Below are positions 13,812 through 55,550 of a stretch of DNA of 64,000 nucleotides, one piece after another (position 1 is the stretch's first letter; every line of letters begins with the position of its first letter). Origin of the DNA: Candidatus Sumerlaeota bacterium (GTDB lineage: Bacteria; Bacillota; SLNR01); contig JAXGQE010000010.1 of NCBI GenBank assembly GCA_040766585.1, forward strand, positions 63,117 through 127,116, in the 5' to 3' direction. The translations under genes were made by a program, and so were the position numbers. Under the pieces are notes generated by a model. That model ran no database searches. It was not told the origin of the DNA and was given only the letters and a program-made list of their open reading frames with translations.

Positions 13812-14033
13812 ATGAAAATCTACGTGTGCTGCCATCGGTGTTTTCCACGGTCAGAACTGCCGGATAAGTACGGGACTTGTCAGATAATCCATCCGTGGGG
13901 TTTACGATTTCCGGTCAGTTTCGGATGATTCCTGAGAATGTTTTCTGATGAGAAATTATCCGGATACCATGCAGGAATTCCAGAAGATTTATCTAATCAT
14001 TCAGGAATTCTTTCTTTCAGGGGAGTGACAATC

Positions 14034-14888
14034 ATGATGATTCAGATACTGGGCACAGCCCAGGACGGAGGTGTACCGCAAGTGGCATGTCAATGTCCGA
14101 CCTGCACCGATGCTCGACGCCATCCCGAACGGATGCGCAAGGGGCCGTCCATCGGCATCTACGATGAAGTGAACGGGCATGCATATATCGTGGATGCATC
14201 CCCCCATTTTGACATTCAGCTGGAGATGCTGTGGCAGGCGGTTCGCCAGGTTCGCATACCCGGACCGTTTCCGCTGGATGCTCTGTTTTTGACCCACGGT
14301 CATTTTGGCCATTACTGGGGATTGGGCTATCTGGGAAAAGAGGCCTGCAGCAGCCGGGAACTGCCGGTCTACTGTACCCGGGATATGCTGGACTTTCTGA
14401 GTGCAAACAGGCCCTTCGCCGATCTGATCCAGAGGAAAAACATTGTGTTCCATCCCATCGAGGATGGGCTGGAAATTCCGGTTCATCCCGACTTAACGGT
14501 GATTCCTTATGCCGTGGAACACCGCCGGGATGTTACCGATACTGTGGGCTATATCCTGAAAGGAAAGATGAAAACCGCTTTGTATATCCCGGATATGGAC
14601 GATGTCACAGAAGGGATTGTGGGAAAAATTGCTCAGGCGGATATCGCCCTCATTGACGGATGCTTCTACTCCGGAGCGGAGCTGCCGGGAAGGGATATGC
14701 GGGAGGTACCGCACCCGCTGATTCCCGATGCCATGGATCGGCTGCAGGAATTGGCAGCCTCTACCGACATCGTTTTTACTCATTTCAACCACACCAATTT
14801 AGCCATTCGACCGGACAGCGAGGAGAGCCGCAGAGTAATTGACCGGGGCTTTTCCCTGGCCCGGGACGGAGACGAATGGGCGATTTAG
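14034..14888 (+). CDS. PqqB-like metallo-beta-lactamase-fold protein
   Basis: ORF 13938-14888, start at ATG 14034 behind GGGGAG (8-nt spacing); N-terminus MMIQILGTAQDGGVPQVACQCPTC resembles PqqB; HxHxDH-like LTHGHFGHY. Confidence 0.7.
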   Translation: MMIQILGTAQDGGVPQVACQCPTCTDARRHPERMRKGPSIGIYDEVNGHAYIVDASPHFDIQLEMLWQAVRQVRIPGPFPLDALFLTHGHFGHYWGLGYLGKEACSSRELPVYCTRDMLDFLSANRPFADLIQRKNIVFHPIEDGLEIPVHPDLTVIPYAVEHRRDVTDTVGYILKGKMKTALYIPDMDDVTEGIVGKIAQADIALIDGCFYSGAELPGRDMREVPHPLIPDAMDRLQELAASTDIVFTHFNHTNLAIRPDSEESRRVIDRGFSLARDGDEWAI

Positions 14889-14903
14889 AAGCGGCATCGA
14901 AAC

Positions 14904-14937
14904 GAGCAATCTGCTGAGCAGGTTGCTTTTTTTTTTG
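14904..14937 (+). terminator. intrinsic terminator
   Basis: Hairpin GCAATCTGC/GCAGGTTGC followed by a 10-T run (14927-14936). Confidence 0.8.
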
Positions 14938-14962
14938 ATGAAATCATAAAATCTTGAAAACG

Positions 14963-14976
14963 GTAACAATTGTTAC
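14963..14976. promoter_or_regulatory. perfect 14-bp palindrome GTAACAATTGTTAC centred about 41.5 bp upstream of the predicted cupin-hcp transcription start; candidate CRP/FNR-family operator
   Basis: Seen directly; extended -10 TGtTATACT at 14997-15004 puts the start near 15011, so the palindrome centre (14969/14970) sits at about -41.5. Confidence 0.45.
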
Positions 14977-15050
14977 GAACATTTCAGGAGTACGGGTGTA
15001 TACTGAGGGTGAGATCCATAAGATGAACGGGATAGAAGGGAGGCTCTGCA

Positions 15051-15377
15051 ATGATTGAAACGATCTTTCAGTGGGTACAAAAAGATGGCAAACAGGTGGA
15101 CAAGGTGATCCAGGATGAGAATGTCCACTACATTCACATGGTATTTCCTCAAGGGGAAGGATTGCCCCAGCATGTATCGAATTCCAACGTATACATGACT
15201 GTCCTGAGAGGTACACTGTCCATTGGACTGAGTGAACAAGATACCCATGAATACGCACCGGGAAATGTCCTGAAGATCCCCCAGGGAGTAGTAATGAATG
15301 TAGGGAACAAGCATCCGGAAACACTGGAACTGATTGTGGTCAAAGCCCCGGCGCCCAAAAGCTCTGGACAGGCATAA
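15051..15377 (+). CDS. cupin-domain protein
   Basis: 108 aa, small beta-barrel-like sequence; RBS GGGAGG 7 nt upstream; immediately precedes hcp. Confidence 0.6.
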   Translation: MIETIFQWVQKDGKQVDKVIQDENVHYIHMVFPQGEGLPQHVSNSNVYMTVLRGTLSIGLSEQDTHEYAPGNVLKIPQGVVMNVGNKHPETLELIVVKAPAPKSSGQA

Positions 15378-15398
15378 AAATATGAGGAGGTATGATCC

Positions 15399-17027
15399 AT
15401 GAGTATGTTTTGTTTTCAATGCCAGGAGACAGCCAACAATACCGGCTGCACCATTCGCGGTGTGTGCGGCAAGAAAGAAGAAGTAGCCAAACTCCAGGAT
15501 CTGTTGGTATACACAACCAAAGGATTAGCTGATATCGTAGTAAAAGGGAAAATGGACGCCAAAGATATTCCCCAGGTTAACTATCAGATGTTCAACAGTC
15601 TCTTTATGACCATTACCAACGCCAACTTCGACGATGGATCCCTGGAAAAACAGATTATGAAGATGATGGGGGTTCGGGATGAAATGAGAGCCAAGGTCAG
15701 CGGTGTGGACCTTCATGATGCCGCTACATTCACCGTGGATACCCGGGACAGCATGCTGGAGAAAGCGTCCCAGGTGGGAGTGCTCTCTGAAGAAAACGAA
15801 GATATTCGATCTTTGAAAGAAACCGTAACCTATGGACTGAAAGGGATGGCGGCCTATACGGAGCATGCGGTGAATATTGGTATGGATGCATCGGAAATTG
15901 CTGATTTCATGTACGATACTCTGGCCAAACTGCTGACACCCATGGGTGCCGATGAGCTGGTGGCTCTGGTACTGAAAACCGGCGAATACGGTGTCAAGTC
16001 CATGGCTCTGCTGGATGAAGCCAACACCTCCCGCTACGGGCATCCGGAAATCACCCAGGTGGATATCGGAGTTCGAAACAATCCGGCCATCCTGATTACC
16101 GGGCATGACCTGGTGGATCTGGAACAGCTGTTGGAACAGACCCGAGGAACCGGCGTGGATGTCTACACCCATGGAGAAATGCTTCCGGCCCAGTACTATC
16201 CATTCTTTAAGAAGTATGATCATTTTGCCGGCAACTACGGGAATTCCTGGTGGAAACAGCTGGAAGAGTTTGTCACCTTCAAGGGACCGATTCTTTTCAC
16301 CACCAACTGCATAGTTCCGCCGAAAAGCGAAGAAGTACGGCAGAGGATTTTCACAACCGGTTCCACCGGATATCCGGGCTGCACCCATATTGTGCCGGAT
16401 GAAAACGGCAAGAAAGATTTCAGTGCGGTCATCGAAATGGCTAAAAAACTTCCGGCTCCGGAAGCCATTGAACACGGTTCCATCGTGGGGGGCTTTGCCC
16501 GCAACCAGGTGCTGGCTCTGGCTGACAAGGTCATTGACGCCGTCAAATCCGGCGCCATCAAGAAATTCTTTGTCATGGCCGGCTGCGACGGTCGGATGAA
16601 ATCCCGGGAGTACTACACGGAATTTGCCGCTAAACTGCCCAAAGATACCGTAATCCTGACGGCAGGCTGCGCCAAGTACCGCTACAATAAACTGGATCTG
16701 GGCGATATCGGCGGGATTCCCCGAGTGCTGGATGCCGGTCAGTGCAACGACTGCTATTCTTTGGCTGTGATTGCCATGAAACTGAAGGAAGCATTCGCTC
16801 TGGATGATATCAATGATCTCCCCATTGCCTATAATATCTCCTGGTACGAACAGAAAGCCGTCATTGTGTTGCTGGCGCTGCTGTACCTGGGAGTGAAGAA
16901 CATTCATTTGGGACCCACACTGCCGGGCTTTTTGTCCCCCAATGTAGCCAAGGTGCTGGTGGACAATTTCAATATCGGCGGGATCACTACTGTGGACCAA
17001 GACATGGCCATGTTTTTGGCAGAATAG
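15399..17027 (+). CDS. hcp: hydroxylamine reductase (hybrid-cluster protein)
   Basis: N-terminus [25 protein letters not shown] is the Hcp cysteine motif; 542 aa; RBS GAGGAGG 8 nt upstream. Confidence 0.93.
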
Positions 17028-17060
17028 AGGAGAAGTAGACAACTTTATGAGAGAAGGCAA

Positions 17061-17097
17061 AAAACACCCGGAAGCGTGAGCTTCCGGGTGTTTTTCT
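17061..17097. terminator. bidirectional intrinsic terminator between hcp and the convergent amidohydrolase gene
   Basis: Stem CACCCGGAAGC/GCTTCCGGGTG with GTGA loop, flanked by an A-run and a T-run. Confidence 0.75.
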
Positions 17098-17110
17098 GCG
17101 GTTGGCTGGA

Positions 17111-18367
17111 TTAAGCCAGCCAGGGTTTGCTTCTCAGTTCTTCCGGTGGATGCGGGTTGGGCACAAAATCGCTGGTGTCCACATCATGTTTCATAACATG
17201 AAGGGTATAGGCGATGGTGGCCATCACTCCCAGAGGAAGCACTTCCTCGTCCACTTCGAAATGGGGATTGTGGTGAGCAGCACCGGTTCCTTTTTCTTCA
17301 TTGGCTATGCCGACGAAGGCAAAGACGCCGGGAGCATACTTCAGGTAAAAAGCCATGGATTCCGAAGCCATCCAGGTGGGTTCGTTCATCAGGTATTCTC
17401 CGCCCATGGCCGTACGGATGGCATCTTCTGCAGCCTTGGACAGCCCAGGGTGATTCATGACAATCATACCGCTGGGATTCAGTCCGGATTTTACATCATA
17501 GGTGCAGTGATGCAGGGCGCAGCAGTGATCCAGGATCTCTTTGGTCCGGGCAGCAGACTTCTTGGATTCTTCCAGATCGGTAACTCGGAAGGACCCGGCA
17601 AATGTCAGTGTTTCCGGAATGATATTGGGAGCGCTGCCGGCGTTGATTTTCCCTACGCTCATGGTGGTGGCTTTAAAGGGATCCAGTGTGGTCATCCGCA
17701 TGGCGTTCATGTTCTGATAGACATCCACGAAGCAGTCTAGGGGGCTATGGGAAAGATCCGGCCGGGATCCGTGGCCGCCCTGGCCTTTGATTTCCACTTC
17801 GAAGAATACACCGGCGGCCATACGGGGACCGGGGTCGACAGAAATCTTTCCGGAAGGCATTCCGGCGTACAGATGGATTCCCCAAATGGCATCCGGCTTT
17901 TCTTCCAGGACCATATTGGAGATCGCCAACGCGCCGTAGCCCATTTCTTCGCCCTGTTCAAACATCAGGACCACTTCGCCATCCAGTTCATCCGCATGTT
18001 CCTTCATGATTTTGGCAGCGGTCAAGAGCATGGATGTGTGGCCATCGTGACCGCAGGCGTGCATGGCGGCATCGGTTTTGGAGCAATATTTTCGCGGGCC
18101 TTTCAGGTTGTCTTCGGCTTCTTTCATGGGCAGTGCGTCGATGTCTGCCCGCAGTCCGATTTTTTTGCCCTTTTTGCCTTTGTTGATCCAGCCGATAATT
18201 CCGCCATCGCGGTCTTCCGCTTCGATGCCCATTTTTTTAAGTTCTTCCATCACCACTTTTTTGGTGTTGGTTTCCTTGCCGCCCACTTCCGGATTTTCAT
18301 GGAAGTAGACATACATCTTCTGCAGGTATTCGGCTTCCTGCTGTACTGCTTTTTTCAGATCCAGCAT
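17111..18367 (-). CDS. M20-family amidohydrolase (N-acyl-amino-acid amidohydrolase / hippurate hydrolase type)
   Basis: 418 aa; metal-binding region MHACGHDGHTSMLL typical of M20D; RBS AAAGGAGGT 7 nt upstream. Confidence 0.88.
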   Translation of the reverse strand: MLDLKKAVQQEAEYLQKMYVYFHENPEVGGKETNTKKVVMEELKKMGIEAEDRDGGIIGWINKGKKGKKIGLRADIDALPMKEAEDNLKGPRKYCSKTDAAMHACGHDGHTSMLLTAAKIMKEHADELDGEVVLMFEQGEEMGYGALAISNMVLEEKPDAIWGIHLYAGMPSGKISVDPGPRMAAGVFFEVEIKGQGGHGSRPDLSHSPLDCFVDVYQNMNAMRMTTLDPFKATTMSVGKINAGSAPNIIPETLTFAGSFRVTDLEESKKSAARTKEILDHCCALHHCTYDVKSGLNPSGMIVMNHPGLSKAAEDAIRTAMGGEYLMNEPTWMASESMAFYLKYAPGVFAFVGIANEEKGTGAAHHNPHFEVDEEVLPLGVMATIAYTLHVMKHDVDTSDFVPNPHPPEELRSKPWLA

Positions 18368-20200: not shown

Positions 20201-21697
20201 ATGGTCTTTGCACAGAAATTAGATCTTTTAATGACCATTACCCGGACTACCAACCGGGAGCTGGGAGAATACCTGGTCATCGACCCTTCCCAGGTCAGCC
20301 GAGTCCGCAACGGACGCAGAAGACCCGGCGGCTGTTTTCTGGAAGGATTGAAACTCTGCTTATTCTTTGCGGAGCGCCTGAAGGATGACTATCAGAAAAA
20401 GGCCGTTCAGAATGCGCTGGGGCTTCCGTATGTCCTGCCTGATGACCTGGAAGAGGCGGCTTCCATTCTAGCGGGAGTGATGCGCCTGCGGGATTTTTCT
20501 GAGCCAGTGATCCCTGAGCCCATCCCTGAACACCCTCATGCCACCGTTGGAACGAGCCGTTTTGGCGTCGAAATTCCGGTCCAGGTGTATACCGGTACCG
20601 AAGGGAACAATGCGGCCAAAGTGCATTTCCTGGAGGAAGTTCTCAAAGAAAGTATCCCCCGGACCATTTGCCTGTTCAACAACGATGATATGGTCTGGAT
20701 GAAGGACGACACTCCTTTTGCCCATACGATTAATCGCTTAGCCAGAGAAATGTACGCCCGGGGGCACCGGCATATCGCCATATTTACTCCGGAACGCAAT
20801 TTTTCTCAGCTCAGCTCCATGGTGGATGAATGGATGCCGCAGATTCTCAGCCAGTCTTTGAAAGTATTCTATTATCCCGGAAAGGTAGACGGTATTTTCC
20901 GACGCCATATCAGCATCATGAGCGGCGGTCTGGCTTTGACCACTTCTGCGGTGGGGGACATGAGCGAAGACAAAATGACCATGATTACCCGGGACAAGCA
21001 GATAATCCGTTCTCTGCAAAAAGAGTTTGACCAGCTGCTGTATCTGTCCAAGCCGCTGTTTAATGTGTACCAGTCCAGCAATGAAAAGCAGATGCTGCAG
21101 GATATTACCAATATATCCAAAGATGAAGCTCCCACATTCCGTTATGCCGACCCGCTTCCGGGGAACACCATGCCGGAGTCGGTTTTTAATTCGGCCTATG
21201 AACGGATGGAATACCGCTTTAAAGAAAGGGTAGCCCGCCATTATCACGAAATCTACCGCTACAACGAATGGAATCTCAACCGCGTTCCCACCATGGAAAT
21301 GATCCACCTGCCGGATCCGGCCGATGTAAAAACCGGGCGCATCCCGGTGGAGCAATCCCTCTATTTCCCCATGGAGACCATCTACTATACGCCGCAGGAG
21401 TATGCCGACCATTTGCGTCATATCCTTTTCCTGCTGGAAAAACACCCCTTTTACCACCTGGCTTTGACAGAACGTGAAGGCCCCGAGAACCATTTGCTGC
21501 TGATCAAAAAAGGCACCCATGTGCTGGTGTCCAACAAGAATTACCCGCCGGTTATACTGACTAGCCGGGAACCTCTGATCGTGGATATATTTTGGCATCA
21601 TTATGTGGAAAAATCCGGACTGGACAAAATCACCACCGTACAGAAACGCCGGGTGATGAATATTCTGGAACAGTATCTGGCCGATCTGACACGATAA
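20201..21697 (+). CDS. hypothetical protein with N-terminal XRE-like helix-turn-helix; putative transcriptional regulator
   Basis: 498 aa; N-terminal TNRELGEYLVIDPSQVSRVRNGRR resembles an HTH; divergent from the yfcC-M20 operon; large C-terminal domain not recognised. Confidence 0.6.
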   Translation: MVFAQKLDLLMTITRTTNRELGEYLVIDPSQVSRVRNGRRRPGGCFLEGLKLCLFFAERLKDDYQKKAVQNALGLPYVLPDDLEEAASILAGVMRLRDFSEPVIPEPIPEHPHATVGTSRFGVEIPVQVYTGTEGNNAAKVHFLEEVLKESIPRTICLFNNDDMVWMKDDTPFAHTINRLAREMYARGHRHIAIFTPERNFSQLSSMVDEWMPQILSQSLKVFYYPGKVDGIFRRHISIMSGGLALTTSAVGDMSEDKMTMITRDKQIIRSLQKEFDQLLYLSKPLFNVYQSSNEKQMLQDITNISKDEAPTFRYADPLPGNTMPESVFNSAYERMEYRFKERVARHYHEIYRYNEWNLNRVPTMEMIHLPDPADVKTGRIPVEQSLYFPMETIYYTPQEYADHLRHILFLLEKHPFYHLALTEREGPENHLLLIKKGTHVLVSNKNYPPVILTSREPLIVDIFWHHYVEKSGLDKITTVQKRRVMNILEQYLADLTR

Positions 21698-30411: not shown

Positions 30412-30491
30412 TCTGGAATTTCGCGGCGGGATCTTTGCCGTATGAATCTGTGATCGGATACGACCCATTACAAATATAGGAGGAGATGTGG

Positions 30492-30989
30492 ATGAAAACC
30501 AAAGAGAATCTGATGGCTGCTTTTGGCGGAGAGTCCCAGGCCAACCGCAAATACCTGGCTTTTTCAAAAAAAGCAGAAAAAGAAGGCTACAAGAATGTGT
30601 CCAGGATCTTTGCGGCCATTGCGGAAGCTGAAACAATCCATGCTTTGAAACATTTCGAAATCGCTGGCAAAGTCGGAAGTACACTGGAGAATCTGAAAGC
30701 TGCCTCCGAGGGTGAAGAGTATGAATTCACGGAAATGTATCCAGAGTTTATCGAAACGGCCAAAGCCGAAGACGACAAAAAGGCGCTCCAAACATTGGAA
30801 TATGCCAATGCAGCGGAGAAAGTTCACGGAGGTATATTTGCCGACCTGGAAAAACAGGTGGCTGGTGGAAGCGACGCAGAAGCAGGAGAAGTCCATCTTT
30901 GCCCGGTATGCGGATGGGTAGGTTTTGAACCGATTCCGGAACGGTGCCCCATATGCAATACAGTCAAGTCAGTATTTCGGATCTTCTAA
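30492..30989 (+). CDS. rubrerythrin
   Basis: Start at ATG 30492 behind AGGAGGAG (7-nt spacing); di-iron ExxH motifs (AEAETIHALKH, AEKVHGG) and C-terminal rubredoxin motif CPVCG...CPICN. Confidence 0.88.
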   Translation: MKTKENLMAAFGGESQANRKYLAFSKKAEKEGYKNVSRIFAAIAEAETIHALKHFEIAGKVGSTLENLKAASEGEEYEFTEMYPEFIETAKAEDDKKALQTLEYANAAEKVHGGIFADLEKQVAGGSDAEAGEVHLCPVCGWVGFEPIPERCPICNTVKSVFRIF

Positions 30990-54434: not shown

Positions 54435-55550
54435 ATGGCAAAGCGACCCAATCAAAGAACTATGGATATTTTTTTGGTAATTGCAGTCTTGGCTTTGCTG
54501 GGGATTGGGCTGGTTATGGTGCATAGCGCCAGCTCGGTGGCCACATTGACTGATTATGGCGATAGTTTCTTTTATCTGAAAAGACAAAGCATGTGGGCTG
54601 CTTTCGGTTTGATTGGGCTGCTCATTGCCAGTCGTATTGATTATCACCGCTGGAATGAATACGCAGTTATTCTAATGGGGATCAGCATTCTGATTTTGCT
54701 GGCTGTTCTTCATCCAAGCATAGGGGTTGTTGTAAATGGAGCTCGACGCTGGATAGAGATTGCAGGACAACGATTTCAACCATCTGAGTTTGCCAAGCTG
54801 GGCCTTATTTTCTTTACTGCATCGGGATTGGCCTACAATCAGAATCGAATTAAGCGTCTGGTTACTGCAGCACCGTATGTGGTGATTGCTGCTGCAGTGT
54901 GCGGGCTGGTGCTTCTGCAGCCGGACCTGGGTACTGCTGTAGCCATTGGGGGAACAGCATTCATTATGTGGTTTGCAGCTGGATTCCACTGGTTTCACTT
55001 AACCTTCCTGGTGGCAATAGCAGCACCGGCCACATGGAAAGCCATAATGATGGAAGAATACCGACGGGACCGGTTCATGGCGTTTTTAAATCCATGGGCG
55101 GATCCCCTTGGGGATGGGTATCACATCATTCAGTCTCTGTTGGCTTTGGGTTCAGGAGGGCTGTTTGGTTTGGGACTGGGAAACAGCCGCCAGAAACTCT
55201 TCTATCTGCCGGAGCGGCATACCGATTTTATTTTTGCCATTATCGGTGAGGAGTTGGGCCTCATAGGTGCACTTTTGGTGATTGGTTTGTTTGGAATGCT
55301 TGCCTACCGGGGATTTCGAATTGCGCTTCATGCCCCCGATACGTTTGGGCGTCTGCTGGCAGCAGGGATTACCAGCATGATTATTTTACAGGCACTGATC
55401 AATATCGGTGTGGTGACCGGATCCCTTCCGGTAACGGGAATTACGCTGCCGCTGATCAGTTCCGGAGGTTCATCTTTGATCCCAACTCTGGGATCCATAG
55501 GAATATTGCTGAATATTTCCCGCCATAGCAGTGAAAACCAGTCAGGATAA
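54435..55550 (+). CDS. ftsW: SEDS-family peptidoglycan polymerase FtsW/SpoVE
   Basis: ORF 54327-55550, start at ATG 54435 behind GGAGGGAA; about 10 TM helices, SEDS-like sequence. Confidence 0.9.
   Translation: MAKRPNQRTMDIFLVIAVLALLGIGLVMVHSASSVATLTDYGDSFFYLKRQSMWAAFGLIGLLIASRIDYHRWNEYAVILMGISILILLAVLHPSIGVVVNGARRWIEIAGQRFQPSEFAKLGLIFFTASGLAYNQNRIKRLVTAAPYVVIAAAVCGLVLLQPDLGTAVAIGGTAFIMWFAAGFHWFHLTFLVAIAAPATWKAIMMEEYRRDRFMAFLNPWADPLGDGYHIIQSLLALGSGGLFGLGLGNSRQKLFYLPERHTDFIFAIIGEELGLIGALLVIGLFGMLAYRGFRIALHAPDTFGRLLAAGITSMIILQALINIGVVTGSLPVTGITLPLISSGGSSLIPTLGSIGILLNISRHSSENQSG

Follow-up and report, generated by a model that had tools for sequence, protein, structure and literature searches.

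A cupin-hcp operon in an uncultured anaerobe, preceded by a predicted HcpR2-type operator at a probable class II position

A site centred at -41.5 defines the class II geometry of CRP/FNR promoters, a model that was established from E. coli CRP and FNR through the work of Busby, Ebright and others. Among the described systems closest to the locus that we report here, the HcpR2 regulon is curated in RegPrecise as well as described in print. In the original description (Rodionov et al., 2005, PLoS Comput Biol 1:e55; PMC1274295), GTAACnnnnGTTAC is the HcpR2 consensus for the hcp upstream regions of Clostridium, Bacteroides, Thermotogales and Treponema, and the residue at CRP position 181 co-varies with the type of operator. 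Regulation by HcpR2 through this motif is mostly a comparative prediction, and we found no direct binding experiment on the GTAAC-type motif in the papers that we consulted. The HcpRs that have been studied are the haem- and NO-sensing protein of P. gingivalis, the regulator of frdX-hcp in C. difficile, and HcpR1 and HcpR2 of Desulfovibrio. In C. difficile, hcp expression drops in an hcpR mutant (PMC12915319), and NO binding by the P. gingivalis protein is reported to result in hcp transcription (PMC12750200).

We analysed a 64-kb window, by which we mean the whole stretch of 64,000 nucleotides, and examined a cupin-hcp locus within it against these systems (Table 1). Reading promoter and genes together, the interval from 14963 to 17095 most probably constitutes a self-contained two-gene nitrosative-stress operon, with a class II promoter predicted to depend on an activator of the HcpR2 type. 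The upstream neighbour, a metallo-beta-lactamase-fold gene (13938-14888; Lactamase_B_2), has its own intrinsic terminator, which shields the cupin-hcp promoter from read-through. The cupin and hcp genes are co-oriented and separated by a gap of 21 nt that holds no terminator. Hcp belongs to its class over its full length, scoring 589.7 bits against Prismane, 831 against the NF003658 equivalog (cut-off 367) and 733 against TIGR01703 (cut-off 361), and it carries the N-terminal cysteine motif C-x2-C-x8-C-x5-C (C5, C8, C17 and C23); the best identity among the contig-scan matches listed is 78%. A sequence-only reading of the locus had placed a small cupin gene before hcp, and both assignments are borne out by domain and structure matches. 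No NCBIfam model matches the cupin or the 498-aa ORF of the window. Downstream of hcp, a strong terminator hairpin (-32.1 kcal/mol; z = -6.0) closes the operon and is shared with the convergent M20 peptidase gene. This hairpin is overlapped by weak His_leader matches at 16981-17099 (+) and 17059-17096 (-), and no credible Rfam match was found for an RNA element in the 5' UTR.

Table 1. Features of the cupin-hcp locus, in coordinates of the 64-kb window.
Feature	Position	Strand	Basis or remark
Intrinsic terminator of upstream metallo-beta-lactamase-fold gene	14904..14937	+	11-pair stem, then T run; terminator scan
GTAAC-AATT-GTTAC, predicted operator of an HcpR2-type (Pro-181) CRP/FNR activator	14963..14976	.	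Centre 14969.5; published consensus and synteny
-10 hexamer TATACT	14999..15004	+	22 nt past palindrome; 5/6 match; without canonical TGn extension
Predicted transcription start	15011	+	7 nt past -10; promoter geometry only
Ribosome-binding site GGGAGG	15038..15043	+	7 nt before cupin ATG
MJ0764-like monocupin gene, 108 aa, first in operon	15051..15377	+	Cupin_2 and PDB 2B8M similarity
Ribosome-binding site GAGGAGG	15384..15390	+	8 nt before hcp ATG
hcp, hybrid cluster protein (hydroxylamine/NO reductase), 542 aa	15399..17027	+	Prismane, NF003658
Bidirectional intrinsic terminator	17060..17095	.	A5, stem 17065-17075/17080-17090, T5

The predicted operator, GTAACAATTGTTAC, is a 14-bp palindrome that proved perfect base by base, as had been proposed; its symmetry breaks off at the flanking bases, G14962 and G14977, and 74 nt separate it from the cupin ATG. 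It fits the HcpR2 consensus at 10 of the 10 specified positions, and the GTAAC/GTTAC half-site that had been suggested for some HcpR groups turns out to be exactly the published one (PMC1274295). The exact pattern GTAAC-N4-GTTAC occurs once in the window, against 0.00 copies expected from 100 dinucleotide-preserving shuffles. Matches with up to two mismatches are at chance level (12 seen, 9.7 expected), and the sole other copy with one mismatch (55431-55444) lies within a coding region. The motif scan of the window found no HcpR site at the rubrerythrin gene (30486-30989).

The distance from this palindrome to the -10 hexamer points to a class II arrangement. From the centre of the palindrome to the start of the hexamer is 29.5 bp, and the 22-nt gap, combined with a transcription start 7 nt past the hexamer, would place that centre at -41.5. 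A start near 15011 with the centre at -41.5 had been suggested before; the 22-nt gap behind it held up, while the start position itself, 7 nt past the hexamer, is a prediction. The -35 position reads CGAACA, a 3/6 match that is not usable, and a promoter scan of the + strand came up without a -35/-10 pair of the sigma-70 type, both of which fit dependence on an activator. A site overlapping the -35 position could in principle repress. An extended -10 element (TGnTATAAT), previously read as TGtTATACT at 14997-15004, was rejected. These coordinates span eight bases, TGTATACT, in which TG directly abuts the hexamer (GGTG-TATACT) and positions -15/-14 are GT, and the TG is not kept in the corresponding sequences of relatives (GATATACT, AAGTATACT and AATTATACT). 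This misreading leaves the -41.5 geometry unchanged. Like E. coli class II promoters, the locus combines a 5-N4-5 palindrome of FNR-type spacing with a missing -35 that the palindrome overlaps and a fixed distance to the -10. It differs from them in its half-site, which is GTAAC rather than TTGAT, and in its host, which is probably a Gram-positive anaerobe; its start and RNA polymerase contacts are putative.

The arrangement recurs in related DNA. Our comparison set comprised the surroundings of 80 related hcp genes, 912 kb in all, together with three syntenic loci (L081, L082 and L083) that were fetched separately. All ten exact copies of GTAAC-N4-GTTAC in the 912 kb lie upstream of an hcp operon, at the operon head and 106-1617 bp before hcp, where about 0.87 copies would be expected by chance anywhere in that DNA. 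The order of site, cupin and hcp seen in the window was also found in L035, L042, L048, L049, L072, L081 and L083. With the syntenic loci included, a TAnnnT sequence stands exactly 22 nt downstream of 11 of the 13 GTAAC sites; chance would give 1.9% per position and the binomial P is ~1e-17, although L081 and L082 are near-duplicates and the 13 sites are not all independent. The 22-nt gap in these 11 of 13 sites, together with the position of 10/10 exact sites upstream of hcp, supports both the site and the class II placement that the sequence-only reading had proposed. The same 22-nt rule holds in 36 of the 42 sites of a sister motif, GTTGN-N4-NCAAC. In the three syntenic loci, whose cupins are 79-82% identical, the half-sites, the TATACT hexamer and the spacing are conserved, whereas the 4-nt spacer (AATT, TAAG or AAAT) and the 22 nt between site and -10 have diverged. 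The palindrome is real and looks functional; it is predicted to be a textbook site of the HcpR branch and to stand at an activating position.

The related loci also indicate which regulators accompany such sites. A regulator gene is adjacent to five of the ten GTAAC sites (L020, L035, L048, L049 and L072), and the other five sites are unlinked to one. All five adjacent regulators are encoded by divergent genes that abut the site, combine cNMP_binding and HTH_Crp_2 domains, and have the recognition helix (A/T)RPS(V/L)SR, with Pro at CRP position 181. Where the regulator has R-S-A at these positions, the accompanying motif is GTTGN-N4-NCAAC, in 11 of 11 loci. The 22-nt distance from operator to -10 is common to three operator flavours, each of which pairs with a regulator having its own residue at position 181 (Pro, Ser or Thr). 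In the window, no Crp/Fnr protein was detected when a profile built from 29 hcp-linked Crp/Fnr proteins was run against six-frame translated segments of at least 60 aa (best E 1.2), and Pfam scans of 36 window ORFs revealed no Crp/Fnr gene and no Rrf2/NsrR-like regulator. These searches are consistent with the proposal of an HcpR-like activator that is encoded outside the 64 kb.

We propose that a CRP/FNR dimer of the HcpR2 branch, supplied by a gene outside the window, would bind GTAAC-N4-GTTAC; regulators of this branch read R-P-S-x-S-R in the recognition helix and have Pro where E. coli CRP has Glu-181. At -41.5 from the predicted start, the palindrome would overlap the position of the missing -35, and the bound regulator may recruit RNA polymerase to the TATACT hexamer upon sensing NO or nitrite-derived stress. 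In this scheme we infer where transcription starts, that the regulator activates and does not repress, that NO is the signal, and that the source genome encodes such a regulator.

Could such a palindrome arise without any regulatory role, or serve as a restriction or methylation target? Chance does produce short palindromes, and copies with as many as two mismatches are as frequent in the window as it predicts. The exact match, on the other hand, did not appear in any of the 100 shuffles, the palindrome is kept in the three syntenic loci despite their divergent flanks, and in the 912 kb of related DNA the motif occurs nowhere but upstream of hcp; these conservation data effectively refute a chance or non-regulatory origin, which we consider exceedingly improbable. 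A regulatory site could instead be the operator of a repressor, of the CRP/FNR or another family, that occludes the -35 region and is released under stress. Overlap with the -35 position is a common placement for repressors, and NsrR-type repression of hcp occurs in proteobacteria (PMC1274295). At this promoter, however, there is no recognisable -35 to occlude, and strict 22-nt phasing (11/13 and 36/42 sites) is what activation demands, whereas repression tolerates variable positions. Since the characterised HcpRs activate, and the scans of 36 window ORFs turned up no candidate repressor of the Rrf2/NsrR or another type, we regard repression as very unlikely.

An activator other than an NO-responsive HcpR is the remaining alternative, in which a CRP/FNR paralogue that does not sense NO, such as an FNR-like redox or oxygen sensor or a protein with another effector, binds the palindrome and the cue is anaerobiosis or something else. 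Several Crp/Fnr paralogues with RP, RT, RS and RPSLF helices do stand side by side in related loci, our literature search found no established signal for clostridial HcpR2, and hcp of enterobacteria is also under FNR (PMC1274295). Against this, each of the five regulators next to a GTAAC site is a member of the Pro-181 group, which co-occurs with hcp and was named HcpR2 by Rodionov et al. Two of them (those of L049 and L035) have only two Cys and lack the N-terminal four-Cys cluster of the FNR type, and the regulated genes are NO-detoxification genes. We therefore judge a paralogue that does not sense NO unlikely, and an HcpR2-type activator responding to nitrosative stress remains our preferred reading.

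With that reading, the locus adds one more ordinary case to a regulon already predicted in 2005, and current understanding is not overturned by it. It shares with the HcpR2 regulon an identical operator consensus upstream of hcp, the Pro at CRP position 181 in the adjacent regulators of related loci, and a host that is an anaerobe related to Clostridia. It differs in that the paper of Rodionov et al. stresses co-localisation of the regulator, whereas none is found within the 64 kb here, and in that the operon starts with an MJ0764-like cupin gene and not with frdX; a cupin is not mentioned in that paper. Similarly, the studied HcpRs are CRP/FNR-family activators of hcp tied to nitrosative stress, but their operators are of the TTGTGA or TTGAC type or species-specific variants with Ser or Gln at position 181, and it is solely for them that the sensing chemistry is known. 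Its value is mainly for annotation: cupin-hcp of an uncultured anaerobe can be labelled a probable nitrosative-stress operon with a remote activator, predicted to be of the HcpR2 type, and the promoter is clean and testable, defined by its site, -10 and spacing.

Beyond this operon the related loci are of modest general value, through the 22-nt rule, the pairing of operator flavours with the residue at position 181, and a widespread cupin that travels with NO-detoxifying enzymes. The cupin of the window scores 25.6 bits against Cupin_2 (PF07883), just under the gathering score of 27.2, and its assignment as a Cupin_2, MJ0764-like monocupin comes through similarity to PDB 2B8M (MJ0764; E 1.2e-20 over residues 1-104). 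MJ0764 of Methanocaldococcus jannaschii is, like the window protein, a single-domain cupin of ~105-115 aa with no assigned function; it differs in being archaeal, and neither function nor metal is reported for it. Its neighbour MJ0765, which we take to be hcp, yielded no paper in our literature search. The 2B8M structure is listed without metal, and an 'MJ0764-like' monocupin group has been described (PMC2684688). A protein search returned 1932 homologues of the window cupin, and in 25 of the 80 related loci a homologue 47-67% identical to it lies just upstream of hcp. Such cupins also head a rubredoxin-hcp operon and a flavodiiron-protein gene, usually behind an HcpR-type class II site among the loci checked. 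In D. desulfuricans a cupin gene adjoining hcp is NO-induced (Ddes_1828/1829; PMC5701242), and in D. gigas a cupin gene is HcpR1-dependent (DGI_2602; PMC4534486), although the cupin family in either case possibly differs from that of the window.

We compared the protein with the canonical cupin metal site (His/His/Glu/His; G-x5-H-x-H-x3,4-E and G-x5-P-x-G-x2-H-x3-N) and found the canonical motifs absent: motif 1 reads H41-V-S43 and lacks the Glu, and the His of motif 2 is replaced by the invariant Met82. MJ0764-like cupins head hcp operons, a rubredoxin-hcp operon and a flavodiiron-protein gene, usually stand behind HcpR-type sites among the loci checked, and keep invariant residues; it is possible, and we suggest it tentatively, that they are dedicated components of NO-detoxification modules rather than passengers. 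Such a cupin could work with Hcp and flavodiiron proteins as a partner that binds NO, nitrite or hydroxylamine or that delivers metal. The canonical metal ligands are lost, yet His29, His41, Asn44, Met82 and Asn86 are invariant, and the full set of positions invariant in 26 cupin homologues is H29, H41, N44, Y48, M49, R53, Y68, M82, N86 and E93.

The palindrome that the sequence-only reading described was borne out when bases 14700-15460 were read: it is perfect over 14 bp (GTAACAATTGTTAC), and neither flanking base, G14962 or G14977, lengthens it. The same reading had proposed an extended -10, given as TGtTATACT, at 14997-15004, but the eight bases there are TGTATACT, which means that TG directly abuts the hexamer and that -15/-14 are GT; the extended -10 (TGnTATAAT) was therefore rejected. 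The -35 position is occupied by CGAACA (3/6 matches), and a sigma-70 consensus scan of the + strand returned no promoter.

Rodionov et al. (2005; PMC1274295) described HcpR2, a branch of CRP/FNR regulators that in Clostridium, Bacteroides, Thermotogales and Treponema co-localises with hcp, the hybrid cluster protein gene. The consensus GTAACnnnnGTTAC was derived from hcp upstream regions and tied to Pro in place of CRP Glu-181, and species with Ser or Gln at position 181 have different motifs (PMC1274295). The window site matches this consensus at 10/10 specified positions, and the GTAAC/GTTAC half-site given for some HcpR groups in the sequence-only reading proved to be the same published motif. 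The sole other near match in the window, GTAACGGGAATTAC at 55431-55444 (1 mismatch), sits in a coding region of the cell-division/cell-wall gene cluster, most likely by chance.

A small cupin gene had been placed ahead of hcp, and we found both genes where that reading put them. With the terminator of the preceding gene ahead of it, and its promoter, two genes and strong terminator, 14963-17095 is a self-contained two-gene operon. The downstream terminator, which folds at -32.1 kcal/mol (z = -6.0), serves both hcp and the M20 peptidase gene that converges on it (17111-18367); a simple terminator scan overlooked it, giving a weaker hairpin at 17102-17123.

Features of the cupin-hcp operon and its upstream neighbour in the window
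Feature	Position	Detail
MBL-fold (metallo-beta-lactamase fold) gene	13938-14888	upstream neighbour; ends in intrinsic terminator
Intrinsic terminator of MBL-fold gene	14904-14928 (stem)	11-pair stem, then T run; from terminator scan
Palindrome	14963-14976	GTAAC-N4-GTTAC
-10 hexamer	14999-15004	TATACT; 22 nt 3' of palindrome
Ribosome-binding site	15038-15043	GGGAGG; ahead of cupin ATG at 15051
Cupin gene	15051-15377	
GAGGAGG	15384-15390	ahead of hcp
hcp	15399-17027	
Bidirectional terminator	17060-17095	A5, GC-rich 11-bp stem (17065-17075 paired with 17080-17090), T5

Searching genome contigs with the window Hcp gave at least 80 loci, most of them from MAGs and isolates of Clostridia, at 68-78% Hcp identity. 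Among the matches listed, one of three 5-N4-5 palindromes occurs within 1.8 kb upstream of hcp. A TAnnnT element lies exactly 22 nt downstream of 11/13 sites of class a (GTAAC-N4-GTTAC), counted among the matches listed plus three syntenic loci (L081, L082 and L083), and, among the matches listed, of 36/42 sites of class b (GTTGN-N4-NCAAC) and 4/7 of class c (GTGAN-N4-NTCAC). Against a background TAnnnT rate of 1.9% per position, the class a result has a binomial P of ~1e-17, with the near-duplicates L081 and L082 both included. Assuming the usual 7 nt from -10 to start, a palindrome at this distance from the hexamer spans -48 to -35 and is centred at -41.5. The commonest hcp or cupin-hcp operator is GTTG(T/G/C)-N4-(A/C/G)CAAC rather than the GTAAC type (40 Clostridia loci among the matches listed; for example at -409, -410, -660 and -113 relative to hcp in L011, L021, L016 and L063, respectively), and class b is probably the "other motif" class noted by Rodionov et al. 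for Ser-181 HcpR2 proteins.

In each of the three syntenic loci the MBL-fold gene is followed in order by the cupin gene, hcp and the M20 peptidase gene (with DcuC also in L081), and their cupins are 79-82% identical. The loci give a clear footprint: the two half-sites, TATACT and the distance of 22 nt are conserved, and the central 4 nt (AATT, TAAG, AAAT) and most of the 22-nt interval diverge. Directly 5' of the palindrome, TTGAAAACG at 14954-14962 is also kept in the three loci, as GTGAAAACG in L083; this type of flank is not conserved in more distant GTAAC loci, and it may be an operator extension, an alpha-CTD contact or simply a trace of recent common ancestry.

We also clustered the 170-300-aa ORFs of the related loci. 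One family dominated (30 proteins in 24 loci among the matches listed), with Pfam cNMP_binding and HTH_Crp_2 domains. In five loci (L020, L035, L048, L049, L072) the Crp/Fnr gene and the operon are transcribed divergently, with the GTAAC site between them, and 5/5 of these regulators carry the recognition helix (A/T)-R-P-S-(V/L)-S-R, the Pro-181 signature. Among the matches listed, R-S-A-(M/L)-S regulators (Ser group) pair with class b sites in 11/11 loci, and R-T-S-L-S-R regulators (Thr group) adjoin a swapped palindrome, GTTAC-N4-GTAAC, in 7/7 (locus coordinates: L002 9669; L009 2047; L020 12614; L035 9922; L038 3597; L048 1531; L076 5915, the last with one mismatch), placed just upstream of either the Thr-group gene or a divergent gene. 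The window has no copy of the swapped palindrome. An HMM of 29 of the clustered Crp/Fnr proteins found nothing in any reading frame of the window (best E 1.2), nor did Pfam scans of 36 window ORFs reveal a Crp/Fnr or Rrf2 regulator; any cognate regulator would thus be encoded elsewhere, as the sequence-only reading had supposed. Likewise, in 5/10 GTAAC loci among the matches listed, no Crp/Fnr gene lies within ~6 kb in either direction. The RP-type regulators of L049 and L035 contain only two cysteines, which makes FNR-like [4Fe-4S] sensing by these relatives unlikely and haem-type sensing plausible, as judged from their sequences.

Class II activation of the cupin-hcp promoter is the best-supported reading. 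A predicted HcpR2-type dimer on GTAAC-N4-GTTAC would stand in for the missing -35 and recruit RNA polymerase to TATACT, and the transcript from the inferred start at ~15011 would span cupin and hcp. Activation as the direction, and NO or nitrite stress as the signal, are proposed by analogy with characterised systems. A C. difficile hcpR mutant shows lowered hcp and frdX expression and is NO-sensitive (PMC12915319), and in P. gingivalis NO on the haem of HcpR is reported to switch hcp on (PMC12750200). One of the most strongly NO-induced genes of D. desulfuricans is Ddes_1828, which encodes a cupin fold and lies beside hcp (Ddes_1829) (PMC5701242), and GSNO induction of the D. gigas cupin DGI_2602 is HcpR1-dependent (PMC4534486).

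We consider it unlikely that another CRP/FNR paralogue, one that does not sense NO, binds the site. The site could instead be a repressor operator, which is quite improbable; its strict phasing to the -10 favours activation over repression. A chance palindrome is exceedingly improbable: the exact motif occurs once in 64 kb and 0 times in 100 dinucleotide-preserving shuffles, and 10/10 exact sites in the 912 kb of the matches listed lie 106-1617 bp upstream of hcp, with ~0.87 expected anywhere in those 912 kb. When up to two mismatches are allowed, matches in the window are about as frequent as chance predicts (12 found, 9.7 expected), and nothing points to further sites there.

The hcp product is a full-length hybrid cluster protein/hydroxylamine reductase (Prismane 590 bits; NCBIfam NF003658 831 bits, cut-off 367; TIGR01703 733 bits) with the N-terminal C-x2-C-x8-C-x5-C. 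The cupin, the least-explored element of the operon, has 108 aa, scores 25.6 bits for Cupin_2, slightly below the gathering score of 27.2, and matched no NCBIfam model. It aligns end to end (E 1.2e-20) with the structural-genomics protein MJ0764 (PDB 2B8M), listed as a metal-free dimeric monocupin of the "MJ0764-like" group (PMC2684688), and its 1932 homologues at E ≤1e-5 bear the generic name "cupin domain-containing protein". The canonical metal ligands are replaced (H-x-S for H-x-H, Glu absent, Met82 for the motif 2 His), and H29, H41, N44, Y48, M49, R53, Y68, M82, N86 and E93 are invariant in 26 homologues. Among the matches listed, 25/80 loci hold a cupin homologue (47-67% identical), co-oriented and within ~550 nt upstream of hcp in 21; it lies 1.1-2.9 kb upstream in L002, L007 and L048 and ~6.7 kb downstream in L020. 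Beyond these, a homologue heads a cupin-rubredoxin-hcp operon in Macellibacteroides (L084, 131-2294), where a class b site stands 22 nt ahead of TAAAAT, and another precedes a flavodiiron protein in a Muiribacteriaceae MAG (L086, 3359-4881), so that the cupin accompanies several NO- or O2-detoxifying enzymes, not Hcp alone. In Thermobrachium celere (L085, 4001-4315) it is separate from hcp; there it follows a CRP-like TGTGA-N6-TCATA and precedes unrelated genes. Given its gene company, replaced ligands and invariant residues, the cupin can reasonably be proposed as a candidate uncharacterised accessory to enzymes that detoxify NO.

Site, target gene and regulator class are alike here and in the HcpR2 regulon predicted in 2005, to which the cupin-hcp site adds, and a cupin was already noted as an HcpR regulon member in Desulfovibrio, as proposed here. 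Two local details differ: the operon is cupin-hcp, in contrast to frdX-hcp in the known HcpR2 regulon, and the regulator is unlinked to it, as in half of the related GTAAC loci among the matches listed. A gene for rubrerythrin, which serves in oxidative-stress defence, is located 13 kb downstream at 30486-30989 (+), with no HcpR-type site ahead of it. The window also contains a 498-aa ORF at 20201-21697 (+) that neither Pfam nor NCBIfam matches; in L081 the equivalent syntenic position (from 11071), after a DcuC-type transporter gene, is taken by a 505-aa gene that likewise lacks Pfam hits.
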